Assembly (NCBI GenBank): GCA_030746555.1
Contig: JASLMK010000072.1
Span: 12,257 to 44,256, forward strand
DNA: 32,000 bases
DNA from: Planctomycetota bacterium
GTDB taxonomy: Bacteria; Planctomycetota; UBA1135; GCA-002686595
Reading direction: 5' to 3'
Shown here piece by piece: positions 4,891 to 31,108 of this stretch. Numbering within the stretch: position 1 is the first letter of the stretch; each line of letters starts with the position of its first letter. The notes under the pieces are model-generated. The model made no database searches and was not told where the DNA came from. It was given only the letters and a program-made list of their open reading frames with translations. A program made the translations under genes and the position numbers.

Positions 4891-4930
4891 CCTACCCCGC
4901 GGGAGACTCCGGGGAGCGCGCGGGTCGGCC

Positions 4931-5668: not shown

Positions 5669-5758
5669 GGGGCCAGGATACGGTCGGACGGCGAGCGCCG
5701 CCGCTCTGCGCTCGGGTCCCGTGGACTCCCTCCGCCCCAGCGGATAGGTTCCGATCCG

Positions 5759-8455
5759 ATGGGCGACGCCATCCTCGACATGCGGAACACTCCCCAGGCG
5801 GCGGCGCTGATGGGCGGCAAGGGGTCCAGCCTGTACGAGCTGGCCCGCGGCGGGCAGCCGGTGCCGGCGTGGTTCTGCGTCAGCGCGCGGGTCTGCGCGG
5901 AGCGCCTCGCCCCTCTCGCCGAGCGCGCCGGCGCCCTCCTCGCTCGCCTCGATCCCGCGCGACCCCAAGGGGTGCGCACCGCGAGCGCGGAGCTCCTGGA
6001 GACCTCGGCGGCCCTGCCCCTGGCCGGGGAGGACCGGCGGGCGATCGAGGAGGCCCTCGGCGACCTGGATGGCGAGCGCTTCGCCGTGCGCTCCTCCGCC
6101 GTCGGGGAGGACGGGAGCGCCGACTCCTTCGCCGGGCAGCTCGAGACCTACCTCCACGTGCGCCGCGAGGATGTGGTCGAGCGCGTCACCGACTGCCAGG
6201 CCTCGGCCTTCACCGCGCGCGCCCTCGCCTACGGGAGGGAGCGCGGCCGCACGCCCGGTCCCGTGGCCGTCGTCGTCCAGGAGATGGTCGCCAGCCGCTC
6301 CGCCGGGGTCCTGTTCACGGCCAACCCCGCCGGGAGCCTCGACGAGCTGGTCGTCGTGGCCGCCTGGGGCCTGGGGGAAGGGGTGGTCGGCGACCTGGTC
6401 GAGTCGGACACCTACATCTACGACCGTCTCACCCGGGCCTGGTCCCGCTCCGTCGGCTCCAAGCGTTCTCGCGTGGTGCTCGACGAGGAAACGGGCACGG
6501 GCACCTGCGTGCGTCCCCTGCCCGAGTCCCTGAGGGAGGGGCCGGTCCTCGACGACGACCAGCTCGAGGCCCTGCGCACCGCGGCCGAGGCGATCGAGGC
6601 CCTCTGCGGCCCCGGCCAGGACGTCGAGTGGGCCTTCGACGAGCGGGGTCGGCTCGCGATCACCCAGAGCAGGCCGATCACGACCCTGCCGCGGGGCGAG
6701 CTGTCGATCTTCGACGCGAGCAACATCGTCGAGAGCTACCCGGGGATCACCTCGCCCCTGACCTTCTCCTACATCCTCGCCGCCTACGCGCGCGTCTTCC
6801 GCGACATGGCCCGCCGCCTGGGCGTGCCTCGCCGCGAGCTCGAGCACAACGACGACCTGTTCGAGAGCATGCTCGGGCACCTCGACGGGCGCGTGTACTA
6901 CAACCTCGGGAGCTGGTACCGCCTGTTCCTGCTGGTCCCCTTCACCGGCTCCTACCTCGGCGTCTGGGAGGAGATGCTCGGGATCCGCAACCCGCGGCCC
7001 GCCTCGGCCCGCGCGCGGCGCAGCGCCGTCTTGCGCGACCTGCCCCGGGCGGCCCGGGCGGCGGGGAGCTTCACCTGGAACCTGCTGCGCCTCACGCCCC
7101 GCATGGAGCGGCTGCGGCGGCGCTTCGCGGGGATCGAGCGGCGCTTTCGCCGCACCGACCTCGACGAGCTCGACACCGTCGCCCTCGCCCGCCTCTACCG
7201 CTCCCTCTCCCTGGAGCTGATGGACGGCTGGGACCTCACCCTGCTCAACGACGCCTACGCGATCATCGGCTCGGGCCTCGTGCGCGCCCAGCTCGAGCGT
7301 GCCGGGGCGGAGGCCGACGCCTTCGGGGCCCTGATGGCGGGCGAGGAGGACCTCGAGAGCGCCCGGCCCGCCCACAGCCTCGCACTCCTCGCGGACGCGG
7401 CCCGCGGGGACGAGGCGCTGCTCGAGGCGCTCGCCGCGGCGGCAGAGGCCGAGGACGCCGCCGTCGCCCGAGCCTTCCCCGACCATCCCGACTTCGCCCG
7501 CCGCTTCGAGGAGCACCTCGAGCGCTGGGGCGACCGCCACCTCGCCGAGCTGAAGCTCGAGTCCCCCAGCCTGCGCCGCCACCCGCGCCTGTTGGCCGGC
7601 CTCATCCTGCGCCAGGCGCGCGGCGGCCACGACGCGGCCCAGGCGGCGGCCCACCGCAAGCGCCTGCGGGAACGAGCCCGCGCCGAGTGCGCCCGGGCCT
7701 TCGCCGGCGCCCCCCACCGCCGGGCGCTCTTCGCCGTCGCCCTCCGCCTCGCCCGGCGCTCGGTGCGCTACCGCGAGAGCTCGCGCATGGACCGGGCGCG
7801 GGGCTTCGGCATGATGCGCGAGGTGTTTTGGGCCATGGCCGAGCGCCTCGTCGCCGAGGGCGCCCTCGAGGCCGCCGACGACGTGTTCCTGTTGACCGTC
7901 GACGAGCTCCTGGGCTTCGCCACCGGTAGCGGGGTCGACGCCGAGCTGCGCGCCATCGTGGAGCGCCGGCGGGCCGAGGCCGCGGCCCGCCCCGACGGTG
8001 GCCCGGCGCGCGAGCGCCTGCGCTTCCGCGGCACGGTGGGCGCACACCCCTCCGCGACCGGCGTTGCCTCCCGCACACAGCCTGCCGACGCTCCCGCCCC
8101 GGGCGACGCCGGCACGCTCGAGGGCACGGGCTGCTCCGCGGGCACGGTCACGGCCGAGGCGGTCGTCGTGCGCGATCCCTCCCAGGCCGCCGACACGGCC
8201 GGCAAGGTGCTCGTGGCGGAGATGACCGATCCCGGCTGGGTGTTCCTGATGATGTCCGCGGCGGGGCTGGTCGTCGAGCGCGGCAGCCTGCTCTCCCACA
8301 CCGCCATCATCGGCCGCGAGCTGGGGGTGCCGACCGTGGTCGGCGTGCCCGGCGCCTGCTCGCTCATCGGCGACGGCGACCGCGTCGAGCTCGACGGGCG
8401 CAGCGGCAGGGTGCACGTGTTCGCCCGCGCCCGCGACGAGGAGGCCGAGGGATGA
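5759..8455 (+). CDS. PEP-utilizing three-domain kinase (PpsA/PPDK N-terminal ATP-grasp + helical middle domain + C-terminal phospho-His swivel domain), rifampin-phosphotransferase-like architecture (copy 1)
   Basis: Starts at ATG 5759 (MGDAILDMRNTPQAAALMGGKGSSLYEL). ATP-grasp blocks: FAVRSSAVGEDGSADSFAGQLETYL, VAVVVQEMVASRSAGVLFTANP, WGLGEGVVGDLVESD and DVEWAFDERGRLAITQSRPIT. C-terminal mobile domain: GKVLVAEMTDPGWVFLMMSAAGLVVERGSLLSHTAIIGRELGVPTVVG (catalytic His in LSHTAI). An alternative start lies at 5780. Confidence 0.85.
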   Translation: MGDAILDMRNTPQAAALMGGKGSSLYELARGGQPVPAWFCVSARVCAERLAPLAERAGALLARLDPARPQGVRTASAELLETSAALPLAGEDRRAIEEALGDLDGERFAVRSSAVGEDGSADSFAGQLETYLHVRREDVVERVTDCQASAFTARALAYGRERGRTPGPVAVVVQEMVASRSAGVLFTANPAGSLDELVVVAAWGLGEGVVGDLVESDTYIYDRLTRAWSRSVGSKRSRVVLDEETGTGTCVRPLPESLREGPVLDDDQLEALRTAAEAIEALCGPGQDVEWAFDERGRLAITQSRPITTLPRGELSIFDASNIVESYPGITSPLTFSYILAAYARVFRDMARRLGVPRRELEHNDDLFESMLGHLDGRVYYNLGSWYRLFLLVPFTGSYLGVWEEMLGIRNPRPASARARRSAVLRDLPRAARAAGSFTWNLLRLTPRMERLRRRFAGIERRFRRTDLDELDTVALARLYRSLSLELMDGWDLTLLNDAYAIIGSGLVRAQLERAGAEADAFGALMAGEEDLESARPAHSLALLADAARGDEALLEALAAAAEAEDAAVARAFPDHPDFARRFEEHLERWGDRHLAELKLESPSLRRHPRLLAGLILRQARGGHDAAQAAAHRKRLRERARAECARAFAGAPHRRALFAVALRLARRSVRYRESSRMDRARGFGMMREVFWAMAERLVAEGALEAADDVFLLTVDELLGFATGSGVDAELRAIVERRRAEAAARPDGGPARERLRFRGTVGAHPSATGVASRTQPADAPAPGDAGTLEGTGCSAGTVTAEAVVVRDPSQAADTAGKVLVAEMTDPGWVFLMMSAAGLVVERGSLLSHTAIIGRELGVPTVVGVPGACSLIGDGDRVELDGRSGRVHVFARARDEEAEG

Positions 8456-9396
8456 GCCGCCTGCGCGGGATCGCGGCCTTCCTGTGGGAGATGTGCCCTC
8501 CCCACCTGCTGCTGCCCCTGGGCGTGGCCCGCTTCTGCGCCGTCTACCTGGGCCTGCAAGCCCTGGCGGGATCGGACGCCCTCGTCCTCGGGCCGCGCGC
8601 GGTCACCGGCACCGCCAGCCTGATCCTGTTCGTCGTCCTCGCCCGGGTCTACGACGAGTTGAAGGACGCGGACACCGACCGCCGCCTGGCCGCCACCGGC
8701 GATCCGCGCACGGCCTCGCGCCCCATCGTGCGCGGCATCGTCGACGAGGCCGACCTGCGCGCGCTGCGCAACGTCCTGATCGTCGCCCTGATCGCCCTCC
8801 AGCTCCCCGGCGCCGCCCCCCTGCCCCTGGCCGGGTTCGCCCTCGCCCTGGCCGCGTTCTGGCTCTCGTCGAACTGGTTCTTCTGGCCGGCGGTCGAGCG
8901 CCACCTCCTGCTGGCGCTGCTGACGACCAGTCCGCTCACCCTCTTCGTGCTGGCCTACGTCGCGACCCTCTTCGCCGCCGACTTCGGCGCCGGGCGTCTG
9001 GGCGCCTCGACGGCCCTGCTCCTGTTCGGCCTCTACGCGCCCATGCTCGCCTGGGAGACCTCGCGCAAGGTCCGCGTCCCCGCCGACGAGACCGACTACG
9101 AGACCTACACCAAGACCCTCGGGCCGCGCCGGGCGCTCGCTCTGCCGATCACCTTCGCCCTGGTGACCGTCGCGCTCCTCGCCTCCTTCGCAGTCCGCGT
9201 CGGCCTGCCCGCACCCTTCTTCTGGGCCCTGGGGAGCGCCGGCGCCCTGTTCGTCGGCGCGTGCCTGGCCTTCGTGATCGCCCCCAGCCGCCGCCGCGCC
9301 CACCTCGAGCCCTTCGCCCAGGTCTTCCTGCTCGTCGCCGACTTCGGCCTGGCGATCGGTCTGGCCTGCGCCTTCTCCGTGACCTGGGCGGCCTGA
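8452..9396 (+). CDS. UbiA-family integral-membrane prenyltransferase
   Basis: 314 aa, polytopic and hydrophobic. The first Asp-rich motif and following loop, YDELKDADTDRRLAATGDPRTASRPIVRGIV, compare with UbiA NDxxDxxxD...RTxNRPLxSG. A second acidic region reads WETSRKVRVPADETDYETYTKTLG. The ATG overlaps the upstream stop (ATGA at 8452-8455). Confidence 0.8.
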   Translation: MSRLRGIAAFLWEMCPPHLLLPLGVARFCAVYLGLQALAGSDALVLGPRAVTGTASLILFVVLARVYDELKDADTDRRLAATGDPRTASRPIVRGIVDEADLRALRNVLIVALIALQLPGAAPLPLAGFALALAAFWLSSNWFFWPAVERHLLLALLTTSPLTLFVLAYVATLFAADFGAGRLGASTALLLFGLYAPMLAWETSRKVRVPADETDYETYTKTLGPRRALALPITFALVTVALLASFAVRVGLPAPFFWALGSAGALFVGACLAFVIAPSRRRAHLEPFAQVFLLVADFGLAIGLACAFSVTWAA

Positions 9397-9401
9397 GGGC
9401 G

Positions 9402-10526
9402 ATGAGCGAGGCCGTCCGCGACGCCGCGTTCTTCGACCACGTGGGCTACTCCACGGTCTGGGAGGACGAGCGCTGCATCGACGAGGGCCTGCGACCCGCT
9501 CCCGGCGAGCGCGTGCTCTCGATCACGTCCGGCGGAGACTTCAGCCTGCAGTTCCTGCTCGCCGACGTGGCCTCGGTCCTGTCGGTCGACTTCAACCCGC
9601 GCCAGGACTTCCTGCTGCAGCTGAAGGTCGCCGCCCTCGCCGAGCTGTCCCACGACGAGCTGTGGGGCTTCTGCGGGCTGGAGAGCTGCGGAGAGCGCGG
9701 TGGCCTCTACGCGCGCCTGCGGCCGCGGCTGGCCGCCGGGCCCCGCGAGTACTGGGACCGCCGCGAGCGCGCGATCCGGCGCGGGTTCCTCTTCGACGGC
9801 AAGCAGGACCGCTTCCTCCACCGGGCCGGTTCGCTGGTCACCGCCGCCCTCGGCCGGCGTGCGGTCGAGCGCTACTTCACGAGCACCACCCTCGCCGAGC
9901 AGCGCGCCGCCATCGGGCCGGGGCTGCGCGGCTGGCGCTGGCGCGCCCTGGCCCGGGTCCTGTTCAGCCGCGCGGTCTTCAACCGCGCCTTCGACCGCGC
10001 CCACTTCCGCTACGCGACGCGCGAGCACCACCCGGCGACGCTCCTGCGCGAGCAGGTCGAGGGCGTCTTCCTCGACCTCCCCGCGGTCGAGAACTACCCC
10101 TACCACTGGGCCTTCCGCCGGGGCTTCCGCGACCGCGAGCACTGCCCCGCCTGGCTGCGGGCGTCGGCCCACCCCACCCTGCGCGACCGCCTCGGGCGGC
10201 TCACCTCGACCGTGGGCGACCTGGCGGAGGTCCTCGAGGAGCTCCCCGAAGACTCCGTGGACTGCTTCCACTTCTCCAACGCCTTCGACTGGGTCAGCCT
10301 GGCGCAGTTCGTGGTCCTGATGAGCGAGGTCGTGCGCGTCGCCCGTCCGGGGGCGCGCCTGTGCTACTGGACGAACCTGTTCAACACGCACCGCGAGCTC
10401 GACCTCGCCATCGGGGCGTTGGGCGGGATCCGGGAGGAGCGCGACCTCGCGGACGGGATCCACCGCGCCTCCCGCACCCCCGGCTACTCCTCCTGCACGC
10501 TGGGGACGATCACGAAGGAGTGGTAG
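9402..10526 (+). CDS. DUF3419 / BtaA-like S-adenosylmethionine 3-amino-3-carboxypropyl transferase
   Basis: Starts at ATG 9402, 5 nt after the UbiA stop. YSTVWEDERCIDEGL, VLSITSGGDFSLQFLL, VLSVDFNPRQDFLLQLK and DCFHFSNAFDWV match my recollection of the BtaA/DUF3419 pattern (Y.q.WED, SaGcN.L, DlNpaQ..LleLK, lSn..dW). Confidence 0.8.
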   Translation: MSEAVRDAAFFDHVGYSTVWEDERCIDEGLRPAPGERVLSITSGGDFSLQFLLADVASVLSVDFNPRQDFLLQLKVAALAELSHDELWGFCGLESCGERGGLYARLRPRLAAGPREYWDRRERAIRRGFLFDGKQDRFLHRAGSLVTAALGRRAVERYFTSTTLAEQRAAIGPGLRGWRWRALARVLFSRAVFNRAFDRAHFRYATREHHPATLLREQVEGVFLDLPAVENYPYHWAFRRGFRDREHCPAWLRASAHPTLRDRLGRLTSTVGDLAEVLEELPEDSVDCFHFSNAFDWVSLAQFVVLMSEVVRVARPGARLCYWTNLFNTHRELDLAIGALGGIREERDLADGIHRASRTPGYSSCTLGTITKEW

Positions 10527-10531
10527 AGCGA

Positions 10532-11446
10532 TTGGACGGACGGACCGAGAGCACCTTCGTCGACCGCGAGAGCGGCGAGCCGTGCACCGAGCACGTCCAC
10601 CGCGGCGGGTTCTTCCGCTGGCTGTACGGTTCGCGCGCCGGACGCGCGCTGCGGGGTTGGCTGACCGGCTCGCGGCTCCTCCACCGCGCCCTCGCCCGCT
10701 TCGCCGACTCGCCGGCCTCGCGGGTGTGCATCCGCCGCTTCAGCGTGCTCGCCGGCGTGGACACCGACGAGGCCCTCGAGCCCGAAGGGGGCTATCGCAG
10801 CTTCAACGACTTCTTCGGCCGCCGCCTGCGTCCGTCCTGCCGCCCCCTCGATCCCGACCCCCAAGCGCTCCTCTCCCCCGGCGACGGCAAGCTGTTCGTC
10901 GCGGGCGACCTGGGCAGCGAGGCGCGCCTCTCGATCAAGGGCTGCTCGTTCACCGCGGCCGAGCTCCTCGCCAAAGCGGCGGACGCGGCACCCTACGCGG
11001 GAGGCAGCGCCGCCGTCCTGCGCTTGTACCTCCCCGACTACCACCGCGTCCACTTCCCCGCCGACGGCGTCCTCGATCCTCCCCGGGAGGTCCTCGGCCG
11101 CTACCTGTCGGTGACCCCGTTTCCCGGCAACGACGAGCCCTTCTACTTCCGAAACCACCGCGTCGTGAGCGTGCTCCGAAGCGACCGCTTCGGGCGCATC
11201 GCCATGGTCGAGGTCGGGGGCTTTCTGATCTCCAGCGTGCGCCCCCTGTGCGCCGCAAGACAGCGCGTGCGCCGCGGCGACGAGAAGAGCCTGTTCGCCT
11301 TCGGCGGCTCCACCCTCGTGCTGTTGGCCGAGCCCGGCCGCGTGGTCTTCGATGCCGACCTCCTCGAGCACTCCGCCCGCGGCCTGGAGACCCGCGTGCG
11401 CCTGGGGACGCGCATCGCCCGCGCGGGGCGCGCCGGCTCAGCCTAG
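10532..11446 (+). CDS. Phosphatidylserine-decarboxylase-family (pyruvoyl-dependent) decarboxylase proenzyme
   Basis: PSD-family blocks: FNDFFGRRLRP, LLSPGDGKL, VLRLYLPDYHRVHFPADG, MVEVGGFLISSV and the self-cleavage-type FAFGGSTLVLL (G-S-T). No ATG is available. The TTG at 10532 lies 11 nt after GAAGGAG (10514-10520). An alternative GTG at 10520 overlaps the upstream gene. Confidence 0.8.
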   Translation: MDGRTESTFVDRESGEPCTEHVHRGGFFRWLYGSRAGRALRGWLTGSRLLHRALARFADSPASRVCIRRFSVLAGVDTDEALEPEGGYRSFNDFFGRRLRPSCRPLDPDPQALLSPGDGKLFVAGDLGSEARLSIKGCSFTAAELLAKAADAAPYAGGSAAVLRLYLPDYHRVHFPADGVLDPPREVLGRYLSVTPFPGNDEPFYFRNHRVVSVLRSDRFGRIAMVEVGGFLISSVRPLCAARQRVRRGDEKSLFAFGGSTLVLLAEPGRVVFDADLLEHSARGLETRVRLGTRIARAGRAGSA

Positions 11447-12538
11447 ATGCTTCTCGAAGACCGCGTAGGCGCGATCGGGGGGGCCGACCGCCGAGAGGAT
11501 GCTCGGCCCCTCGCCTACGAGCGCGCCGGTCGCGTGGGCGTAGCCGCCGCGAGCACAGAGCTCGAGGCCGTGGGCCATGACCTCGTAGATCAGGTTCGTC
11601 TTGCGGTGGGGCGGCATCACGCCGAACACGAAGAACACGACCCGGTCCCGCGGCGCCTCGGCCAGGGCGGCGAGGTCGCCCCCGTCGCCGTCGAGCTCGC
11701 CGAAGGCGCGCGCGAGATCGTGGTAGCCGAAGCTGAAGCCGGCGATCTCCCCGGTCGCGGGCACCTCCCAGCGGGTCAGGAACTCGGGTCGCGACAGCTC
11801 GAGCAGCGGCCCGAAGGCCTGACGGAACTCCGCCAGGTCGATCGGGGCGCAGTGGTAGTTCTCGGCGAAGCACTCCATGATCATCGGGTGCAGGAGCTCG
11901 AGCTGCTCGGCGAGGGAGGAGGCCGTCGCGTCGACCGGCAGGTACTCCCCCGCTCCCTCGGCGCGCCGGGAGAGGCCGGCGGAGACGGCGGCGCCCAGCC
12001 CGCCGAGGACCCGCCGGGGAAGATCCCAGCTGCGCCAGCTCGCGTGCGGCGCGAAGCCTGCGGACTCGACGAGGGCGCGGTAGTAGGCGGGGCAGCGTGG
12101 CTCGCCCAGAAACGGCTCCCGGTCGAAGCCGTCGGTCTGCAGGCGGTAGCCGCCGTAGACGCTGAGGTTCACCGGGCCGTGCACGGTCCGGCATCCCTCC
12201 CCCGCGAGCCACTCCTCAGCCGCCGCGAACAGGGCGGAGGCCACGGCGGGATCGTCGCCGGTCTCGAAGAAGCCGAAGTGTCCGGTGCCCGACTCCGCCA
12301 GGCCGTCGTCCGCCGAGGCGACGATGCGCCCGACGACCTCGCCCGCCCGGCGGCACAGGAAGGGGCGCGCCCGGCCGTGGCGGAAGAACAGGTTCTCGTC
12401 GGACAGCTGGGTGCGCACGCTCTCGCGCAGGGGCGGCACCCAACGGTGCTCTCCTCCGTAGATGCGCCAGGGGAGCTCGATGAATGCCTCCAGCTCGGCT
12501 CCCTCGCGGTCGATCGCGGTCACTTCCAGGGCATCCAT
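11438..12538 (-). CDS. GNAT-fold acyl-CoA N-acyltransferase-like protein (two-lobed, 366 aa)
   Basis: Starts at ATG 12538 and overlaps the upstream stop (TGATG). The N-terminus FIELPWRIYGGEHRWVPPLRESVRTQLSDENLFFRHGRARPFLCRRAGEVVGRIVA matches a widespread family usually annotated as GNAT N-acetyltransferase. The family assignment is from memory, and the acyl donor and acceptor are unknown. Confidence 0.7.
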   Translation of the reverse strand: MDALEVTAIDREGAELEAFIELPWRIYGGEHRWVPPLRESVRTQLSDENLFFRHGRARPFLCRRAGEVVGRIVASADDGLAESGTGHFGFFETGDDPAVASALFAAAEEWLAGEGCRTVHGPVNLSVYGGYRLQTDGFDREPFLGEPRCPAYYRALVESAGFAPHASWRSWDLPRRVLGGLGAAVSAGLSRRAEGAGEYLPVDATASSLAEQLELLHPMIMECFAENYHCAPIDLAEFRQAFGPLLELSRPEFLTRWEVPATGEIAGFSFGYHDLARAFGELDGDGGDLAALAEAPRDRVVFFVFGVMPPHRKTNLIYEVMAHGLELCARGGYAHATGALVGEGPSILSAVGPPDRAYAVFEKHLG

Positions 12539-15231
12539 CAGGGCGCCTCCTCTCTGGCTGTCCCGTCCTCGGGATGGACCCGGATCGTCCCCGCGTCGCC
12601 GTCCAGGGTCACGAGCGCGCCGTCGGGGAGCCTGGCGCACAGGTCCCGGACGGCCAGCACGGCGGGGATGCCGTACTCGCGAGAGATCACCGCAGCGTGG
12701 GAGAGCAGGCCGCCGGTCTCGGTCGCCACGCCCGCCAGCAGGCCGAAGCGCGGGGTCCAGCCCGGGTCGGTGTAGCGCGTGACGAGGACGTCCCCCTCCT
12801 CGAGGCGGTCGGCGTCGAAGATGTCGCGCACCACTCGGACACGGCCCGTCACCACGCCCGGGCTGCAGGCGACGCCCTCGAGCTTTGCTCCCGGGCCGGC
12901 CGGCGCGCCGGTGGCCGAGGCCCCGTAGCCCTCGCCGATCTCGTCGGGGTTGCGGTAGTGGCGGAAGGAGCGGTAGTAGAGACGGTTGCGCGCGACGAGG
13001 CGGGCGGCGTCCGCGGCGGTGAGCTCGCCCCTCGCCAGCCCCAACAGGTCGTCGAGCGCCAGGAAGAACACGTCGTCCACCTCGGCGAGGTCGCCGCCGC
13101 CCACCAACCGGCGGGCGACCTCCAGGGTGAAGCGGCGCACGAAGAAGTAGAAGCGCGTCGAGAGGTCGCGCAGCTCCTCCCGCCACCACAGGAACTCGCG
13201 CAGGCGGTCCAGCCTGGCCGCGAGGCCCCTGCGGCGATGGAAGGGCGCCAGGCGCAGCATGCGCTCGCGCTCGGCGAGGTAGGCCTCGTGGGCGCGGGCG
13301 TTCGCCCGCCGCGGGTCCGCCTCGTCCTCGAGCCCTAGCAGGTCCCGGCAGTGCTCGACCACGATACGCGGGGCCTCCCCGTAGCGCGGGACCGAGAGGT
13401 CGAGCTCGCGCGTGGCGTGGTGACGAGAGCGCCGCACCACCTCCGCCAGCTCACCCAGACAGTGCTCGTCGGAGCCGGCGAGCATGGCGCGCGTCAACTG
13501 GCCGTCGTCCTGGCTCTCCCACGCCGCCCGCGCGTCGACCGAGGCGCGGATCTTGCGGCTGACGTCCCACAGCTCGAAGTTGGGCAGGAGGTGCGAGACG
13601 TCGGTGAGCCCCGAGAACAGGGTCAAGAGGTCGACCTCGCCGCCGAGCCTGGTGAAGGCGCCCTTGGTCAGCGACTGCAGGTTGGAGTTGTTGTAGACGA
13701 GGGTGAAGTAGGTCCCCTCGCTCTGGCGGTAGTCCGGCCCCACCAGGGTCTCGTAGAGCGCGAGCAGCTCCTCGCGTCCCAGGGCCGCCGGATCGATCGC
13801 GTCCAGCACCGCCAGGCGCGCCTGTTGGCGCCGCCGGTGGGCCTCGAACCCGGCGCTCTGCTCGCGGAAGGCCCGCTGGAGCGCCAGGAACACGCGCGCC
13901 GCGTTCCACAGGGTCCGGGGAGTGAGCCGGGAGGTCCGACCGCGCCCCTCGTAGGCGACCTCGATCCCCAGCTCCTCGTCGAACTCGCGCTCGACGAAGC
14001 CGGGGATGGCGAGGAAGCACTGCTTGATCCGGGCCAGGTTCCAGTAGGGACGCCCGAAGAACATCTCGCCCCAGACGGTCTCGTCGTCGCGCCCCAACAG
14101 GCGCACGCCGCGCAGGTAGGCGGGCATGGTGCGCTCCAGGATCGAGTCGTAGAGCGACCACATGAACGGCGTGCAGACGGTCGACGAGACGCCGCCGTCC
14201 TTGAAGTCCGCGGTCGACCACTCGCCCTCGATCCCGCCGGTGCGGATAGCGGTGATCGGCCGGGCCTGCAGGAGGTACGGCTCCCCCTCCGCCCAGGCCC
14301 ACTCGATGTCGACCGGAAAGCCGTACTCGGCTTGGACCCCGACGGCGAGCTCGGCGAGCCTCGCGGCCTCCTCCGGCGACAGGACGGCGCGCTCCCGCCG
14401 CTCCTGCGCTAGGGGGACGGCGCGCACGAGGGCGGGAGGCTCCGCGCAGACCAGCGCGTGCTCCTGGTCCGCCGCCGTGCGCCCCACCTCGACTCGCCTG
14501 AACCAGTCGTAGCGCACCTGCTCGGGGGTCACGCTGCCGTCGACGAGCGCCTCGCCTAGGCCGAAGCAGGCCTCGATGACGACCTCGCGGTCGGCGCCGG
14601 TCACGGGATTGACCGTGAAGGCCACGCCGCTGCGCTCGGCGTCGACCAGCTCCTGCAGCACGACGGCGATCGCGAGGTCCGCCAGCGGGACGGCTCGATC
14701 GAGGCAGTAGGAGAGCACGCGCTCGTTGAAGGCCGACGCCCAGCACTCCCGGATCGCCGCGGCGACCTGGTCGAGGCCCTGCGCCCCTAGCACGGTCGTG
14801 TACATGCCGGCGAAGGAGACTCCGTGCAGGTCCTCCTTCGTACCGCTGCTGCGCACGGCGTAGCGCGCGCCCGCGGGCCGCTCTTGGAGGAAGGCCTCGA
14901 GGTCGCGGGCCAGGCCCTCGGGGAGCGGCGTCGAGACGATCGCCTCGCGGGCCTCGGCCGCGCGCGCGAGGCATCGCTCGCGATCAGGCGGTCCGCAGCG
15001 GCGCACGGCCTCGACCCGCTTCCCAAGCCCCCCGACATCGACGAACTGCTCGAAGCCTCCGGTCAGGACGACGGCGCCGGGCGGCACGCGAAGCCCCCAG
15101 GACTCCAGGCGCACGAGCCCCTGCGCCTTGCGGCCCGCCTGCTCCAGACGCGCGGGGTCCGCCGCGAGATCGGCGAAGGACGCGAGCTGCCCGCGGCCGG
15201 CCACGTGCCCGTCGTCAGTAGCTCGGCGCAT
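12538..15231 (-). CDS. PEP-utilizing three-domain kinase, rifampin-phosphotransferase-like architecture (copy 2, diverged paralog of 5759-8455)
   Basis: 897 aa. ATP-grasp blocks: YAVRSSGTKEDLHGVSFAGMYTTVLG, IAVVLQELVDAERSGVAFTVNP, FGLGEALVDGSVTPE and VDIEWAWAEGEPYLLQARPIT. C-terminal swivel domain: GDVLVTRYTDPGWTPRFGLLAGVATETGGLLSHAAVISREYGIPAVLAV. Confidence 0.85.
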   Translation of the reverse strand: MRRATDDGHVAGRGQLASFADLAADPARLEQAGRKAQGLVRLESWGLRVPPGAVVLTGGFEQFVDVGGLGKRVEAVRRCGPPDRERCLARAAEAREAIVSTPLPEGLARDLEAFLQERPAGARYAVRSSGTKEDLHGVSFAGMYTTVLGAQGLDQVAAAIRECWASAFNERVLSYCLDRAVPLADLAIAVVLQELVDAERSGVAFTVNPVTGADREVVIEACFGLGEALVDGSVTPEQVRYDWFRRVEVGRTAADQEHALVCAEPPALVRAVPLAQERRERAVLSPEEAARLAELAVGVQAEYGFPVDIEWAWAEGEPYLLQARPITAIRTGGIEGEWSTADFKDGGVSSTVCTPFMWSLYDSILERTMPAYLRGVRLLGRDDETVWGEMFFGRPYWNLARIKQCFLAIPGFVEREFDEELGIEVAYEGRGRTSRLTPRTLWNAARVFLALQRAFREQSAGFEAHRRRQQARLAVLDAIDPAALGREELLALYETLVGPDYRQSEGTYFTLVYNNSNLQSLTKGAFTRLGGEVDLLTLFSGLTDVSHLLPNFELWDVSRKIRASVDARAAWESQDDGQLTRAMLAGSDEHCLGELAEVVRRSRHHATRELDLSVPRYGEAPRIVVEHCRDLLGLEDEADPRRANARAHEAYLAERERMLRLAPFHRRRGLAARLDRLREFLWWREELRDLSTRFYFFVRRFTLEVARRLVGGGDLAEVDDVFFLALDDLLGLARGELTAADAARLVARNRLYYRSFRHYRNPDEIGEGYGASATGAPAGPGAKLEGVACSPGVVTGRVRVVRDIFDADRLEEGDVLVTRYTDPGWTPRFGLLAGVATETGGLLSHAAVISREYGIPAVLAVRDLCARLPDGALVTLDGDAGTIRVHPEDGTAREEAP

Positions 15232-18200
15232 CCTTGATCCGCCCCAGGGCGAAGCCGTGCTTGCGCGCCACTTCCATGATCGCCTCGACGCGCTCGATCG
15301 TGATCGGCCCGAAGCTGTAGTGCTCGTCGATCCCCTCCAGGCCCATCAGGAGCGACTCGGAGACGCAGGCGTGGGTCTCCCCGGTCGCCACGGTGACGCC
15401 GGGAATGCGGAAGTCCTCGTTGCAGGGGAGCTTCACGACGCCGCCGAGGATCACGGTCACGTCGGGCCGCTCGGTGCGCACGGAGGGGTCGGTGTCGGTA
15501 GGGACGGAGATGTCGCAGATCACGACCGGCCCGGGGCCGAGCATGGAGGGGAAGAGGACCGGCCCGGGATCGTTGGTCGTGCTGACGATGAGGGTGGCGT
15601 CGACGAGGTCGGTGAGGTCGCCGCTCACTCGCAGGGGCGAGCTCGCGCCCAGGGTGCGCTCCAGCTCGGCGAACAGCCAGGGGCCGAGGTCCGCGGGGGA
15701 CTCGCGGCCCTCCAGGAGGCGGAGGGCCGGCTCGGTGTCCGCCAGGGAGCCGGCGATGCCCGAGAGGGAGGCCCGCTGCCCCGTGTCGCAGCCGCGCAGG
15801 GTCTCGAAGGCCTCCTCGAGGATGCGCCCCGCCACGGCCCTCAGACGCCGGCGATGGGACGGGCGGCCGACCAGGATCATGCGCGGCACGTGCCGCGCCA
15901 GGAGGTCGCCGTAGACGCTGCCGATGTTGCCGAGGGCGCCGATGACGGCGGCGCACGCGGTGCCGAGGGCGATCCCTTCCTCCGCCGCGGTGCGCCGGAT
16001 CGACTCGAACCCCATGGCCACGGTCAGCGAGTTCCCCGAGGTCAGGGCCAAAGAGCCGGTGTTCTTCACGTCGGTGCAGTTGCCGGTGATGATCGACGTG
16101 AAGCCGCCGTAGCCCATGACCTGGCAGCCCTCGCGCTTGGCGAGGTCCACGGCGATCTCGATCTTCTCGTCGAGGAATCGATGGTTGCGCGCGCGCATGT
16201 GGGCGCCGATGGTCGCCGAGGACTCGAACAGGGCGATCAGCTGGAAGTCCGCCACGGCGCCGGCAGAGGAGCGGACGGTGATCACCGGCATCAGGAACGG
16301 ATCGATGATGTCCTTGAAACGGTCCATCAGCGCCTCGAGCTGCTCCTCGGTGAACCCCTCCAGGCCGGGGTCGAAGTCGAGCAGCTCGCGGGGGTGGATG
16401 AAGTGCCCGAGGAAGGCGACGCGGCGCCTCTCCGGCGGCGCCGACGGCGGGGGAGCCGGCCGGCGCCGATCGGCGATCGGCCCTTCGGTGCCAGGGGTCT
16501 CATCGCCCGCGACGAACCTCAGCAGCTCGTAGGTGTTCTGCTTCTCGATCGCCTCGCACAGGCGCCGCAGCCCCCCGATCAGCCGCTCGCAGTCCTGTGC
16601 GGAGACGCAGTAGGGCGGCTCGAGCCGCAGGGTGTCGCTGTTGGACAGAGTCGGGAAGACGCGCAGGCGGTGCTCGTGCAGCAGGTATCCGGCGACGACG
16701 TAGCCGAACAAGTGCTGCTGGCCCAGGGCGCGCAGGGTCGTGCACGCGGACTCCGCCTGGGAGCGGAGCTCGACGCCGATCATCAGGCCCGCTCCGCGCA
16801 CTTCGGCGATCACGCCTGGGAACTCGCGGCGCACGCCCTCGAGGCGTTCGAGAAGCTCCGCGCCGACGCGCTCGCAGCGCCCGTAGATCTCAGCGTCGCG
16901 CTCGAGCAGGTCGAGCGCCGCCACGGCGAGGGCCGCGGAGTGGCAGTCCTCGGCGAAGGTCGAGGTGTGGATGCGCCCGAATTCCTCGTCGTACTGGGCC
17001 GCGTCCAGGAGCAGCGCCGAGATCTTCGCCAGCCCGCCGCCCAGGCTCTTGGACAGGAGGTAGTAGTCGGCGACGACGCCGAGCTGCTCGGCGAACAGGA
17101 ACGTCCCGGTGCGCCCCATCCCGGTCTGGATCTCGTCGAAGATGAGCGGGAAGCCGGCGGCGTCGGCGACGCCCCGGCAGCTCTCCAGGAAGGCGGGAGG
17201 AACCGGGTGGATCCCGCCCTCGCCTTGGATCGGCTCGATGAAGAGCCCGGCTACGGTCACCAGCGGCATCGGTTCGAGGGCCAGCTCCTCGCCCGCGGGC
17301 CCGGCGCGGATCACCGGGCGGTAGAGGCACTGGGTCCGGCGGGCGACGATCCGCTCCAACGCCTCCTCGTCGAAGCAGGGCACGAACTCCGTCTCGACGC
17401 CGAAGCCGGCGAACGGTTTGCGGTACTCGTCGTGGTGGGTCAGCTGGACGGCGCCCGTGGTCTTGCCGTGGAAGGCGCGCTCCAGCGCCAGGAAGGCGGG
17501 CGCGGGCAGCTCGGCGAGGGTCCTCTGGTTGTGGGCATCGAGGCGCTCGAGGGCCTCGGCCACGGGTCCCTCGACCCCGGCGGGCTCCCCGGCGGTCCGG
17601 TGCACCAGGGTGCGCAGCTCCAGGACGGCGGTCGGCGGGTGTTCGGAGAGCTCCGCGGGCAGGGAGGGGCCACGCACGAGCTCGGCGAGCTCCTCGGCGA
17701 TCCCCAGGGACTCGAGGTCGGCCCGCCGGCGGATCCGTACGCCGTCCGCCCGCGCTCCGCGCACCCGCGCCCGCAGGCGGTTCCTCCAGACCAGGGTCGC
17801 GTGCTTGATGGCGCCCTCGACCGCCTCGGCGCCCGAGTTGGCGAGGGCCGTCAGGTAGCGCCGGCCGGTGCGCGCCGCCAGCATCTCCCCCAGGCGCTCC
17901 CCCACGTTGGCGGCCTCGGGCCGGGCGCTACCCTGGCTGTTGAAGGGCAGGCCAGCCGCCAGGGTCTCCCGGGCGCGACGGACGAGCTCGGGGTGGTTGT
18001 GCCCGAACAGGGCCGCCCCGAAGCCACCCACGAAGTCGCTGACCGCGACCTCGGCTCCGTCCTCGTCCCGATGGAACAGGCGCGCGCCCTCCCCGCGGTG
18101 GTAGGTCACGTCCATCCGCATCGCGCGCAGGCGCTTGCCGATCGAGGGCCGGCAGTGCTCGGTGTACTTGGCGCTGTCAGTCTGGGGCACGGGTTCCTCC

Positions 18201-18268
18201 GAGAGGATCCCGTCCTCAGCCCGAGACCGCGGTCTCCCCGAGCCGGCGGTGAGCCGGGACGGGGTCAT
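15215..18268 (-). CDS. Fusion protein: class-III (omega) PLP aminotransferase domain (N-terminal) + acyl-ACP-reductase (AAR/COG5322)-like NAD(P)-binding reductase domain (C-terminal)
   Basis: Aminotransferase blocks: GGFGAALFGHNHPEL, ANSGAEAVEGAIKHA, AFHGKTTGA, IEPIQGEGGI, LIFDEIQTGMGRTG and LLSKSLGGG (PLP Lys). After a Pro/Arg linker (about residue 600), the C-terminal ~400 aa (nt 15215-16423) align by eye to cyanobacterial Aar. Matches are FLGHFIHP (Aar LIGHLTS), GYGGFTSIITGN (ALGGFTSII), LTSGNSLTVAMG (FTTGNTHTAWV), AAVIGALGNIGSVYG (VAVVGATGDIGSAV), ACVSESLLMGLEG (ACFAEAMLLEFEG) and ITIERVEAIMEVARKHGF (ITIEKMEAIGEASVRHGF). An alternative start is GTG 18190, preceded by GGAGG 5 nt upstream. 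Confidence 0.85.
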   Translation of the reverse strand: MTPSRLTAGSGRPRSRAEDGILSEEPVPQTDSAKYTEHCRPSIGKRLRAMRMDVTYHRGEGARLFHRDEDGAEVAVSDFVGGFGAALFGHNHPELVRRARETLAAGLPFNSQGSARPEAANVGERLGEMLAARTGRRYLTALANSGAEAVEGAIKHATLVWRNRLRARVRGARADGVRIRRRADLESLGIAEELAELVRGPSLPAELSEHPPTAVLELRTLVHRTAGEPAGVEGPVAEALERLDAHNQRTLAELPAPAFLALERAFHGKTTGAVQLTHHDEYRKPFAGFGVETEFVPCFDEEALERIVARRTQCLYRPVIRAGPAGEELALEPMPLVTVAGLFIEPIQGEGGIHPVPPAFLESCRGVADAAGFPLIFDEIQTGMGRTGTFLFAEQLGVVADYYLLSKSLGGGLAKISALLLDAAQYDEEFGRIHTSTFAEDCHSAALAVAALDLLERDAEIYGRCERVGAELLERLEGVRREFPGVIAEVRGAGLMIGVELRSQAESACTTLRALGQQHLFGYVVAGYLLHEHRLRVFPTLSNSDTLRLEPPYCVSAQDCERLIGGLRRLCEAIEKQNTYELLRFVAGDETPGTEGPIADRRRPAPPPSAPPERRRVAFLGHFIHPRELLDFDPGLEGFTEEQLEALMDRFKDIIDPFLMPVITVRSSAGAVADFQLIALFESSATIGAHMRARNHRFLDEKIEIAVDLAKREGCQVMGYGGFTSIITGNCTDVKNTGSLALTSGNSLTVAMGFESIRRTAAEEGIALGTACAAVIGALGNIGSVYGDLLARHVPRMILVGRPSHRRRLRAVAGRILEEAFETLRGCDTGQRASLSGIAGSLADTEPALRLLEGRESPADLGPWLFAELERTLGASSPLRVSGDLTDLVDATLIVSTTNDPGPVLFPSMLGPGPVVICDISVPTDTDPSVRTERPDVTVILGGVVKLPCNEDFRIPGVTVATGETHACVSESLLMGLEGIDEHYSFGPITIERVEAIMEVARKHGFALGRIKDAPSY

Positions 18269-18353
18269 TGTATCCCAGCCGTACCCCGCGCGCGAACGCG
18301 CCGACGCACGGGCGAGCCGACGGCGCGTGGCACTCGGAGAGGAGGGGGCTTCG

Positions 18354-19274
18354 TCAGTCCTTCTCGAGGACCTCGCCGTTCTCGAAGAGCAGGATCGAGT
18401 CCGCGACGAGCATGACCGTCTGGAACCGCGAGAAGGCGCCGGCGACGGTCGGGTATCCGTACTCGAAGGTGGAGCCGTCCATGAACAGGAAGGCGCTGCC
18501 GTCCTCGGCCACGTGGCGCACGCGTCGGGTCCGGTAGACGAGTCCCTCGTCGTCTCCCGGCCCGCGCACGAGCTCCGCCTCGCGGTGCCCCTGGCCCTCC
18601 AGCCAGATCCGCCGGCCGCCTGAGTGCAGGAACGCCCTTGCCCGCGGCGCGAGGAAGTCCAGAGGCCCGCGCACGTCGACCCGCACGCCGTTGTCGAGGG
18701 TCAAGCGCTGCTTGTCGATGCCCGAGGAGCGCGCCCAGAAGCCGCGGCTCACCGGGCGGGCTCCGCCCCGCGCCGTCCCGTCGGCTGAGGCGCTCCGCCG
18801 ACAGAGGTAGCGCACCGGCTCGGCGCCGCGCTCGGTCAGGGTGGCGACCCCCAGGGCGGTCTCTCCCGCGCCAAGGACCGTGAACTCCAGGCGCAGCCGC
18901 TCGACGTCCCGTCGCTCGGGCAGCTCGAACAGTGCGCTCTCGACATGGCCGCGGCGCCAGGCCTCGATCAGCTGCACGCCGTCCCCGAGCCCCTCGATGA
19001 CCGGCGAGCCGTCGCTCGCCGCGAGGTCGACCGACCACTCCTTCGGCAGCGTCTCCCCGGGCCACAGGGCCCGCGTCGCCGCCCGGTCGAGGTGCCAGGA
19101 GCCGAAGATCTCCCCCGGCGAGGCGCGCGGAAAGCCATCGGTGGGTGTGGTCGCCGCTTCGGCCGGCCCTCCCGCGGCATCCACCCTGCCCTCGCCTTGC
19201 CGCAGTCCGCCGACGATCGCACCCAGCACTCCCGCCGCCAGCGCCCACCTGCTCCAACCGATCGCGTCGCTCAT
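18354..19274 (-). CDS. Hypothetical membrane-anchored/exported protein (306 aa)
   Basis: This is the C-terminal 306 codons of the track ORF 18354..19943, starting at ATG 19274. It begins MSDAIGWSRWALAAGVLGAIVGGL (TM/signal anchor), followed by a mixed-composition soluble domain ending FLFMDGSTFEYGYPTVAGAFSRFQTVMLVADSILLFENGEVLEKD. I recognise no family. Confidence 0.6.
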   Translation of the reverse strand: MSDAIGWSRWALAAGVLGAIVGGLRQGEGRVDAAGGPAEAATTPTDGFPRASPGEIFGSWHLDRAATRALWPGETLPKEWSVDLAASDGSPVIEGLGDGVQLIEAWRRGHVESALFELPERRDVERLRLEFTVLGAGETALGVATLTERGAEPVRYLCRRSASADGTARGGARPVSRGFWARSSGIDKQRLTLDNGVRVDVRGPLDFLAPRARAFLHSGGRRIWLEGQGHREAELVRGPGDDEGLVYRTRRVRHVAEDGSAFLFMDGSTFEYGYPTVAGAFSRFQTVMLVADSILLFENGEVLEKD

Positions 19275-19446: not shown

Positions 19447-19971
19447 ATGGGCTTCGGCATGACCCCGCCCGGTAGACCGGCCGAGGGGAGCGACCCTGGC
19501 CGCGCCCGCCTCGCCCCCTGGAGGAGCCTCCTCCTGCTGCTCCTGCTCGCCCCTCTCCCATGCGTCCTCGGGCTCTCCCTGCGTCGGGCGCCGGAATCGG
19601 CGCTCAGCCCCCGCCTTCCCCTCTGGCTGGACGGCGCCTTCCGGGAGGCGGGGACCCTCCTCGCCGGGAGCGACGGCACGCGGGTGCGACTGACCGCCGC
19701 CTCCCTGAGGCTCGAGGCGGCCCACACCCCAGGCCTCGTCTCGAGCGCCAAGGCCCTCGTCGCCCGGGACGTGCTGTTGCACCCCGTGGATGGGGACAGG
19801 CCGGAGTGGGCCTTCCGCCGCCTGGAGCTGGCGACCGAGCTCGGCCCCCACGCCTGGTTCGGCCCCGTCCGCTGTACGGGTGTCGATGGCAGCGTGGAGA
19901 CGAGCGAGGCGCCCCGAGGATGGCTCACGATCGTCGACGGCACGGTTCGCTGGCGAGCAGGGAGCCGCTGA
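19447..19971 (+). CDS. Hypothetical small exported protein (174 aa)
   Basis: In-frame ATG at 19447 (second ATG at 19459) inside track ORF 18841..19971. It has a signal-like WRSLLLLLLLAPLPCVLGL, strong third-position GC bias and non-repetitive composition. It is divergent from 18354-19274. Confidence 0.55.
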   Translation: MGFGMTPPGRPAEGSDPGRARLAPWRSLLLLLLLAPLPCVLGLSLRRAPESALSPRLPLWLDGAFREAGTLLAGSDGTRVRLTAASLRLEAAHTPGLVSSAKALVARDVLLHPVDGDRPEWAFRRLELATELGPHAWFGPVRCTGVDGSVETSEAPRGWLTIVDGTVRWRAGSR

Positions 19972-19991: not shown

Positions 19992-20819
19992 TCAGCGGGG
20001 CCGGGCCGCGTAGAGGACGAGGACGCCCAAGGCGCCCTCGGCGGCGGCGGCCAGCACTCCGCCCAGCACCTCGGCCTCGGGACCGGCCCCGGCCAGGGTA
20101 GCCAAGGCGTTGCTCAGCCGCGTCCACCCGAGCCATCCCAAGAGAGGCCCCCCGTAGGAGAGCGCACCCATCCAGCGCGCCGACCACTGGACCGCGCACA
20201 GGGCGAGGGCCGCCATCAGCAGCACGAACAGCGCGTGGCTGCAGAGTCCGGGGAGGACGGGGGTCTCGGGCGGGGTGAACGCCACGGTCGCCGCGAGCTC
20301 CTCGAGGGAAGCGACCCTCCCCTCGCGAACCCGGGGTCCGGCCGGGTCCGGACGGAACTCCACCCAGCGCCACTCCCCCTCGCCCCGGCGTAGAGCGGCA
20401 CCCCAGGCATCGCCCGACTCCCAGGTCACTCGCCCGGGGGCCTCAGCGTCCGTCCACACCATCCCGACCGCGTCACCCGCCCCGAGCAGGGCGAGGGTGG
20501 CGGCCAGGGCGCCGCCGGAGACCCGGGGAAGGGGCAGGCCCGCGCAGGCGACCATCGTGTGCTGGCGTCTTCCGACCCAGAGCGCCAGGGCACCGGTGAA
20601 CCCGAGGGCGCAGGCGAGGGGCCAGCACACCAGGAGATGGTTCGCCGCGGCCTCGACGACCTTCACCGCGATGCGACCGGGCGGGGAGCTTCCCAGCTCG
20701 TGGGCATGACGGAACGCGGACGCCGCCACGCTCAGGACCGTCACGACCGCCACCGCGGCCGCAGTCTGGTGGAGGACATCGCCGACGAGATGCCGCCCCA
20801 AGCGGCTCATGAGCGCCAC
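19992..20819 (-). CDS. LptF/LptG (YjgP/YjgQ)-family permease-like protein (second of a tandem pair)
   Basis: 275 aa with an N-terminal TM cluster, a central soluble segment (TDAEAPGRVTWESGDAWGAALRRGEGEWRWVEF) and a C-terminal TM cluster. GRRQHTMVACAGLPLPRV resembles the family motif (E..a..a.G.S). It overlaps the upstream paralog by 13 nt. Confidence 0.6.
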   Translation of the reverse strand: MALMSRLGRHLVGDVLHQTAAAVAVVTVLSVAASAFRHAHELGSSPPGRIAVKVVEAAANHLLVCWPLACALGFTGALALWVGRRQHTMVACAGLPLPRVSGGALAATLALLGAGDAVGMVWTDAEAPGRVTWESGDAWGAALRRGEGEWRWVEFRPDPAGPRVREGRVASLEELAATVAFTPPETPVLPGLCSHALFVLLMAALALCAVQWSARWMGALSYGGPLLGWLGWTRLSNALATLAGAGPEAEVLGGVLAAAAEGALGVLVLYAARPR

Positions 20820-28636: not shown

Positions 28637-28650
28637 GCCGCCGAGGTTGT

Positions 28651-28683
28651 TTGTCCACCGCCACGTGGGCCGATATCATCGGC
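28651..28683 (+). promoter_or_regulatory. Sigma70-like promoter candidate with overlapping palindromic operator-like sites upstream of mmsA
   Basis: TTGTCC (28651-56), a 17-nt spacer, then TATCAT (28674-79), in an unusually AT-rich patch. The perfect palindrome CCACGTGG (28661-68) sits in the spacer. The inverted repeat GCCGAT-ATC-ATCGGC (28669-83) overlaps the -10. Confidence 0.3.
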
Positions 28684-28757
28684 GCCCCGCTCCCGCCGCA
28701 GAGGCTCCGCCCGCACCGGGCCGGCCGCGGTCGCAGGGCGCGGGAGACCTCCCCCAG

Positions 28758-30209: not shown

Positions 30210-30227
30210 AGAGAGGATCCCCAAAGC

Positions 30228-31100: not shown

Positions 31101-31108
31101 GGAGAGCG

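Follow-up and report, generated by a model that had tools for sequence, protein, structure and literature searches.

A predicted TamH-type transaminase-reductase fusion in a Planctomycetota bacterium, encoded in an operon with a dikinase and opposite phospholipid-type genes

Proteins in which an aminotransferase (AT) is fused to a domain that reduces acyl thioesters have already been described. PtTamH, whose activity was shown in 2022, carries an N-terminal class-III transaminase and a C-terminal thioester reductase (TR) that resembles acyl-acyl carrier protein (ACP) reductase (AAR), and together with the ANL-ACP protein TamA it converts a C12 fatty acid to dodecylamine with NADH and L-Glu (PMC9594044). 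PigE, studied in 2021, reduces a thioester and then transaminates the aldehyde with its two domains in the reverse order (PMC8341465), and PP_2782/KecF and three thermophilic homologues were published in 2024 as "natural transaminase fusions" with an AAR domain, the reductase activity of such fusions not being demonstrated in that work (PMC10829540). The formation of a primary amine from acyl-ACP by a TamH-type enzyme has been demonstrated only for PtTamH with TamA (PMC9594044). Here we analyze a gene of this kind, called AT-TR below, in a 32,000-nucleotide stretch of DNA from a Planctomycetota bacterium (the window; assembly GCA_030746555.1, contig JASLMK010000072.1, positions 12,257 to 44,256). 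The original prediction for this DNA knew of no such AT-AAR fusion, but the type is described: PtTamH, PigE (in the reverse order) and PP_2782/KecF precede it, and the finding rediscovers a known enzyme class.

The AT-TR gene is a single intact open reading frame (ORF) with no internal stops, and its parts are as follows (residue numbers are those of the 1017-aa translation):

15215..18268, minus strand: AT-TR fusion gene, 1017 aa (from ATG 18268) or 991 aa (from GTG 18190), stop codon TGA at 15215-15217
16568..18115, minus strand: predicted ω-transaminase domain of class III (CrmG-like), aa 52-567, which has an insertion not found in the Pfam core
16418..16516, minus strand: low-complexity Pro/Arg-rich interdomain linker, aa ~585-617, containing ETPGTEGPIADRRRPAPPPSAPPERRR
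15218..16417, minus strand: predicted AAR-like NAD(P)H thioester-reductase (TR) domain, aa 618-1017

Reading from the preceding in-frame stop, one first meets a start codon in the ATG at 18268, which gives the 1017-aa protein. The GTG at 18190 is preceded by GGAGGA (a Shine-Dalgarno sequence), and the identical 991-aa database protein (P0001) begins there; for these two reasons the GTG is probably the true start and the annotated ATG probably wrong, and the first 26 residues of the longer translation are therefore probably not translated. The codon-position GC contents of the minus-strand frame (0.69/0.55/0.92) are typical of coding DNA in this window, which is 73% GC. A 1095-aa antisense ORF at 15128-18415 on the plus strand was considered and rejected as a high-GC shadow, since codon-position GC favors the minus-strand frame as the coding one.

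The original prediction had taken the N-terminal part of the protein for an ω-transaminase that retains its pyridoxal phosphate (PLP) lysine, and the comparisons bear this out. Residues 52-567 match Pfam Aminotran_3 (PF00202) with E=2.3e-58, and a search of PDB sequences gives CrmG (5DDS, 4.8e-84) as the closest solved structure, with PigE (4PPM) at 1.1e-44 and the putrescine aminotransferase YgjG at about 4e-40; PtTamH was published with these same relatives (PMC9594044). The PLP lysine is K407 of SK407SLGGG (its codon lies at nt 17048-17050), and DEIQTG begins at aa 378, where D378 is the pyridine-nitrogen aspartate. By sequence, then, the N-terminal domain is a class-III ω-transaminase with its PLP lysine in place. 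The AT match ends at aa ~578, and the linker lies in the stretch before the TR-domain alignment begins.

The claim that the C-terminal ~400 residues are Aar-like is likewise upheld, and all of the motifs named in support of the two claims are present where they were said to be (DEIQTG, SKSLGGG, GGFTSI, TSGNSLT, GALGNIG and the C-terminal ITIE block). Within the TR domain, GGFTSI is found at aa 721, TSGNSLT is present, and G777ALGNIG783 (nt 15920-15940) pairs with GATGDIG of the S. elongatus AAR (SeAAR). The C-terminal ITIERVEA...HGF block, ITIERVEAIMEVARKHGF (aa 989-1006), aligns with ITIEKMEAIGEASVRHGF of the same enzyme, and the catalytic cysteine C968 (nt 15365-15367) pairs with SeAAR C294 (HAC968VSES versus FAC294FAEA). 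Neither C968 nor the glycine motif varies among 16 aligned homologous TR domains. Taken alone, the C-terminal 421 aa match the N-terminal part of the NCBIfam PigE model at 7.5e-29 and the acyl-ACP reductase model TIGR04058 at 2.7e-19, and phmmer matches the region to the PDB AAR chains 6JZQ/6JZU at 2.1e-15 and to the PigE sequence 4PPM at 1.8e-15.

Structure comparison, a check proposed in the original prediction, gives the same picture. An AlphaFold2 model of the TR domain built on the 16-homologue alignment has a mean predicted local distance difference test score (pLDDT) of 92.4 and a predicted TM score (pTM) of 0.90, and when it is compared with the PDB by Foldseek seven AAR chains rank first (6e-20 to 4e-16, TM 0.74-0.78), 6JZY being the best (6e-20, TM 0.77). 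The next match is the carmabin "terminal amidation domain" (TAD) of CarI (9E4U, 7e-14), an AAR relative of unknown chemistry (bioRxiv 10.1101/2024.10.28.620694), and generic Rossmann dehydrogenases come nine orders of magnitude below that. A shikimate, amino-acid or glutamyl-tRNA dehydrogenase identity, the kind of placement that the original prediction had set against its own, was weighed and rejected: Pfam lacks a model for the domain, its only match being Shikimate_DH at 0.18, and in Foldseek E is 6e-3 for shikimate dehydrogenase and 5e-4 to 5e-3 for glutamyl-tRNA reductase, hence at least 5e-4 versus 6e-20 for AAR, which leaves these folds at least 14 orders of magnitude behind. Sequence, profile and predicted fold thus all mark the C-terminal domain as AAR-like, with the catalytic cysteine and the dinucleotide motif retained. 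The intact ORF, the catalytic motifs and the domain-level family membership are established here, as are both folds at the level of homology and modeling. With its transaminase, which bears the PLP lysine, and its AAR-like TR joined in that order in one polypeptide, AT-TR belongs, as judged from its sequence, to the TamH-type fusions.

How common is this arrangement? The TR domain alone was searched against 1.84 billion cluster representatives and found 2188, 1379 and 375 homologous representatives at E <=1e-3, <=1e-10 and <=1e-30, respectively. Among the best 150 of these, 86 are AT-TR proteins of ~850-1150 aa and the remainder are mostly fragments. A scan of contigs with the full protein drew in generic aminotransferases by way of the FDEIQTGM pattern, and only 3-4 of its matches were true fusions; the metagenome scan was seeded with TR-only alignment patterns. 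In that scan, independent of the search of representatives, the AT part precedes the TR part in 59 of the 59 metagenome loci with enough upstream DNA, and fusion to an AT is the rule in this TR subfamily. Full-length homologues (~40% identity) are found in Planctomycetota, Myxococcota, Spirochaetota, Bacillota, Bacteroidota, Pseudomonas, Massilia and Actinoplanes, and the closest relative, 76% identical, is in a Planctomycetota metagenome-assembled genome (MAG; locus L084). The unit also occurs at the C-terminus of long multidomain proteins, in 14 of the 150 best representatives; one of these, P0058, has ketoreductase and PP-binding domains. Such didomains end proteins of 1400-3900 aa (P0058, P0291, P0296, P0299, P0308, P0375 and others), and their sequences suggest that they are reductive-release-plus-transamination termination modules of assembly lines like those of polyketide synthases (PKS).

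We consider it quite likely, from sequence, modeled fold and analogy, that AT-TR is a TamH-type bifunctional enzyme that converts an acyl thioester to an aldehyde and the aldehyde to a primary amine. The TR domain would take an acyl group (most probably that of a fatty acid of medium or long chain length) from a 4'-phosphopantetheine thioester, the source being acyl-ACP or possibly acyl-CoA, onto Cys968; NAD(P)H bound at G777xxGxxG783 would reduce the acyl-enzyme and the aldehyde would be released; and the CrmG-like domain, with PLP on Lys407 and an amino acid as donor, would transaminate it to the primary amine. This is the logic of the original prediction, and it finds support here in the two folds and their catalytic residues, while homology to PtTamH and PigE is what suggests the reductive direction, a thioester as substrate, an amine as product and any channelling of the aldehyde.

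Several results weigh against this assignment. Although the NCBIfam PigE model is the top family match of the whole protein (8e-94), the score of 315.5 bits in 5 stretches falls well under the cut-off of 850 for the PigE equivalog NF053554, and the 69.7 bits obtained with the Aar equivalog TIGR04058 are far below its cut-off of 449.7; AT-TR is therefore a relative of both and not an orthologue of either, and its substrate could differ. PtTamH rejects acyl-CoA (PMC9594044). Finally, no ACP, ANL or PKS gene is present among the gene calls that flank AT-TR or the larger ORFs of the window. These calls, taken from the identical NCBI contig of GCA_035092285.1, extend ~5-13 kb on each side of AT-TR, and PP-binding, AMP-binding, ketosynthase, acyl-CoA dehydrogenase and O-methyltransferase genes are absent from them and from the larger ORFs; tblastn with two ACPs likewise gave no match in the window, a method that is insensitive to a small divergent ACP. 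With no such gene nearby, the acyl donor would have to be housekeeping acyl-ACP, acyl-CoA or something else, and housekeeping acyl-ACP is our simplest guess.

AT-TR heads a translationally coupled operon on the minus strand (AT-TR, Rph1, tandem GNAT), in which Rph1 starts 17 nt before the end of AT-TR and the next ATG shares 1 nt with the Rph1 stop. An operon on the plus strand (Rph2, UbiA-like, DUF3419, phosphatidylserine decarboxylase (PSD) family) converges on it. The members of the two operons other than AT-TR are:

12538..15231, minus strand: Rph1, 897-aa phosphoenolpyruvate (PEP)-synthase/rifampicin-phosphotransferase-like ATP dikinase with ATP-grasp, central and phosphohistidine swivel domains
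11438..12538, minus strand: tandem-GNAT N-acyltransferase-like protein, 366 aa, ATG sharing 1 nt with the Rph1 stop
5759..8455, plus strand: Rph2, second PEP-synthase/Rph-like dikinase, 898 aa, first gene of the converging operon (NCBIfam PRK06241.2-2, 654 bits)
8452..9396, plus strand: UbiA-family (prenyltransferase-like) membrane protein, 314 aa (PRK13592 4.3e-23; Pfam UbiA 2.1e-6, under the cut-off)
9402..10526, plus strand: DUF3419 protein, 374 aa (Pfam PF11899, 3.3e-54)
10532..11446, plus strand: PSD-family protein, 304 aa (PF02666 3e-42; PRK00723 1.8e-69)

Rph1 matches Pfam PPDK_N (8.7e-70) and PEP-utilizers (7e-22), and its best PDB match is the Listeria Rph structure 5FBS (1.6e-70), with which the swivel-domain His is aligned. 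Its NCBIfam scores are 406 bits for PRK06241.2-2, 344 for Rph, 332 for RedH and 305 for PigC, all of them under cut-off (the curated values for the last three are 999, 1350 and 1300 bits, respectively), so by sequence Rph1 is a relative of the Rph and PigC-RedH families that reaches no curated cut-off. A prodiginine/tambjamine cluster, prompted by the PigE and PigC/RedH model matches, was considered and rejected because the scores are far under the cut-offs and no MBC-type genes are present among the gene calls and larger ORFs; to judge from the genes here, a bipyrrole pigment is presumably not the destination of the amine. By sequence the 366-aa protein can scarcely be recognized as a GNAT (Pfam Acetyltransf_1 at 6e-4, a match seen in 5 of 11 homologues), but its AlphaFold2 model, built with database homologues as input, has a pLDDT of 91 and matches 2WPW (1e-13), 5KF1, 7Q3A, glucosamine N-acetyltransferase, MshD and NMT in Foldseek, so that the modeled fold resembles that of amine N-acyltransferases. 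We take DUF3419 to be the family of BtaA-type S-adenosylmethionine 3-amino-3-carboxypropyl transferases. A mechanical ORF at 4691-8455 on the plus strand would extend the Rph2 gene to 1254 aa; PPDK_N starts at aa 373 of it and the database gene at 5759, and the N-terminal extension, which overlaps an opposite-strand nitroreductase gene, is probably non-coding.

Parts of this arrangement recur in other phyla. Among 74 distinct metagenome loci AT-TR is paired with Rph1 in nine, and among the 23 that have 3 kb or more of DNA on each side it is paired with Rph1 in three and has a tandem GNAT beside it in five. MAGs of Spirochaetes and of a proteobacterium carry the pair too, as does the 76%-identical Planctomycetota MAG. 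Counting the cultured species listed below, the adjacency is seen in loci L082, L084, L085, L168 and L169, and at least 17 contigs, matched by their lengths, are apparently common to the best-120 lists of AT-TR and Rph1 homologues. In a neighbor-joining tree of 120 homologues the Rph-associated AT-TR proteins partly cluster, most of the contigs being too short to score. Elsewhere the contexts vary: one Planctomycetes MAG has an ACP gene as neighbor and in Sorangium the gene lies in a secondary-metabolite region, and the most frequent families in the 150 ORFs that flank Rph-free AT-TR loci are PP-binding proteins (five), amino-acid permeases (five), fatty-acid desaturases (four) and acyl-CoA dehydrogenases (three). 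Two cultured species have a well-ordered version of the operon, given here with the related one of Geothrix:

Vibrio quintilis: AT-TR, Rph1, CDP-alcohol phosphatidyltransferase, CarS-like, PSD, Rph2, UbiA
Massilia atriviolacea: AT-TR, Rph1, CarS-like, CDP-alcohol phosphatidyltransferase, PSD, Rph2
Geothrix sp. (locus L170, CP126625.1, 7399-16230): tandem GNAT, PSD, CarS-like, Rph1-type, UbiA, Rph2-type

Rph1 and Rph2 are distinct paralogues, each conserved separately, and orthologues of Rph2 are found in all three of these operons, as are homologues of PSD. A UbiA homologue is present in the Geothrix operon, and UbiA-annotated genes lie at the equivalent position in V. quintilis and in locus L085. 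DUF3419 occupies, in the window, the place of the CarS-like and CDP-alcohol-transferase pair that is usual in the related operons, and a homologue of it adjoins Rph and AT-TR in locus L117.

The coupling of AT-TR to Rph1 and the GNAT, together with the facing lipid-type operon, leads us to think that the amine probably undergoes N-acylation, phosphorylation or both on its way into a polar, lipid-like product; the first of these is suggested by the modeled tandem GNAT. More tentatively, and with doubts that outweigh our confidence, we propose that AT-TR acts in a conserved, undescribed, multi-phylum pathway in which a fatty amine becomes the anchor of a polar lipid that contains no glycerol. 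The gene set of that pathway would be Rph1 and Rph2, the PSD-family and UbiA-like proteins, and either a CarS-like protein with a CDP-alcohol phosphatidyltransferase or, as in the window, DUF3419, a set often completed by the tandem GNAT and the TamH-like AT-TR. The product could be, for example, a "ceramide-like" amide formed by N-acylation or a phosphoramidate (N-phospho) lipid, and its head group could enter as an amino acid that is decarboxylated afterwards. Relatives of Rph are kinases of hydrophobic acceptors, and the Campylobacter jejuni PEP-synthase homologue Cj1418 is a glutamine kinase that is followed by the cytidylyltransferase Cj1416, a precedent for N-phosphorylation (a P-N bond) and then CDP activation. 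A parallel to UbiA, CarS, the CDP-alcohol transferase and PSD is offered by the last four steps of archaetidylethanolamine synthesis.

The Geothrix operon is a point against giving AT-TR a central place in such a pathway. No AT-TR gene lies within 10 kb of it, and since the Rph, CarS, PSD, UbiA and GNAT genes are there AT-TR is not indispensable to that set; AT-TR is either an accessory to the set and not its core, or is encoded elsewhere in the Geothrix genome. Our reading of the literature, which included the 2025 "lipocone" survey and did not extend to subscription-only papers, found no description of the operon. The Caulobacter ceramide-phosphoglycerate (Cpg) genes were considered as a known analogue and rejected, no PEP-utilizer-type enzyme being mentioned there. 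The apparent novelty of this locus is thus the operon, in which AT-TR and an Rph-like dikinase stand beside phospholipid head-group-type genes and for which we found no published product. If the product is an amine-based membrane lipid or a phosphoramidate lipid, it would be a new class of bacterial lipid, and many orphan Rph homologues that are annotated "phosphoenolpyruvate synthase" would gain a physiological role. The operon occurs in the cultivable V. quintilis and M. atriviolacea, where it is experimentally accessible, as well as in Planctomycetota, Spirochaetota and other MAGs. The enzyme itself is of modest value, a further and rather divergent protein (~40% identical to its closest relatives beyond its own clade) in a family that is already under development as a biocatalyst for making amines from fatty acids.

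The close coupling of AT-TR and Rph1, which are adjacent across phyla, could also mean that the two share a reaction: Rph1 would phosphorylate a free carboxylate, and Cys968 would capture and reduce the acyl-phosphate before the aldehyde is transaminated, giving an ACP-free, three-step acid-to-amine module that resembles a carboxylic acid reductase. This is the acyl-phosphate option named in the original prediction. It would account for the lack of ACP and ANL genes in the annotated Rph-associated loci, when some Rph-free loci have PP-binding or AMP-binding neighbors, and kinase/reductase pairs that act through acyl-phosphates are well established (aspartate kinase/ASADH and ArgB/ArgC). We nevertheless think it improbable, since Rph1-type genes occur in the Geothrix operon without AT-TR, an AMP-binding gene is divergently adjacent to AT-TR in Massilia, no AAR-family enzyme is known to use an acyl-phosphate, and the known substrates of the dikinase family are a hydroxyl (rifampicin, the case of the closest solved structure) and an amide nitrogen (Cj1418); we know of no carboxylate-phosphorylating member. 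The matches of Rph1 to the RedH and PigC models raise a further idea. In the tambjamine route the amine is the product of TamH and the condensing enzyme TamQ is a PigC homologue, and by the same scheme the dikinase would use ATP to condense the AT-TR amine with a carbonyl partner other than a bipyrrole, giving an enamine or imine. We regard this as quite improbable: only the ATP-grasp and swivel domains match PigC/RedH, in two separate stretches and far under the cut-offs, whereas PRK06241.2-2 (over its full length) and Listeria Rph fit Rph1 better; the gene calls and larger ORFs of the window lack the Pro-adenylation/PCP, acyl-CoA dehydrogenase, ketosynthase and O-methyltransferase families; and the conserved partners are lipid head-group-type enzymes.

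Class-III transaminases are reversible and the operon regularly includes a decarboxylase whose product would carry a terminal amine, so AT-TR might instead work in the opposite direction or on a polar head group. A terminal primary amine, perhaps the ethanolamine or aminopropyl group made by the PSD-family enzyme, would become an aldehyde, then a thiohemiacetal on the cysteine and finally a thioester or acid; or the C-terminal domain might have a non-reductive role like that of the CarI TAD, its second-best structural match. The characterized AT-AAR fusions, however, all run in the reductive direction, AAR (6e-20) is a far better match to the TR domain than the TAD (7e-14), and the AT-TR homologues that follow an ACP at PKS C-termini fit reductive release, so that we hold this to be very improbable indeed.

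Other genes of the window lie outside the two operons. Upstream of the AT-TR operon, two adjacent membrane-protein genes (19992-21904, minus strand, 272 and 365 aa) are syntenic in the 76%-identical MAG (L084), and the second (365 aa) weakly matches LptF/LptG permeases (Pfam 3.8e-4). The ORFs at 18354-19274 (minus), 19447-19971 (plus) and 21967-23298 (minus) encode 306, 174 and 443 aa with no Pfam or NCBIfam match, and the first two have conserved counterparts in the same related contig. Next to one another on the plus strand at 28647-31999 are genes for an amidohydrolase, a carbon-nitrogen hydrolase (6e-64) and an aldehyde dehydrogenase (1.6e-137), possibly a trio for the catabolism of amines or amides; no link to the AT-TR operon is established.

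Set against the described enzymes, AT-TR shares with SeAAR (6JZQ/6JZU/6JZY) the fold (TM 0.77), the position of the catalytic Cys, the GxxGxxG motif and the C-terminal ITIEx·EAI...HGF block, but is only ~22% identical to it. Aar is a stand-alone protein of ~340 aa that passes its aldehyde to the deformylating oxygenase ADO, and no ADO-like gene is annotated near AT-TR among the gene calls and larger ORFs of the window. Both domains are homologous to those of PigE (4PPM: TR 1.8e-15, AT 1.1e-44) and the proposed order of reduction and then transamination is common to the two, but in PigE the TR domain is at the N-terminus, the substrate is a 3-acetyloctanoyl thioester and the gene belongs to a pigment cluster. 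PP_2782/KecF, of the koreenceine pathway, has the same N-terminal transaminase and C-terminal AAR domain in ~950 aa, and its setting differs in being that of type-II-PKS-like clusters with ACP, ketosynthase and reductase genes. PtTamH, compared here by its published description, lies in a 19-gene bipyrrole (MBC) cluster and receives its substrate from the dedicated TamA, neither of which was found here; the neighbors of AT-TR are instead the Rph-like dikinases and the tandem GNAT, UbiA-like, DUF3419 and PSD-family genes. In the protein itself the likeness to PtTamH is nevertheless close: the domains come in the order transaminase, linker of ~30-50 aa and AAR-like TR, the closest structural relatives are in both cases CrmG and SeAAR, the acyl-thioester to aldehyde to primary amine chemistry of PtTamH is the one predicted here, and the catalytic residues K340, G707xxGxxG713 and C887 of TamH have their counterparts in K407, G777xxGxxG783 and C968 of AT-TR.

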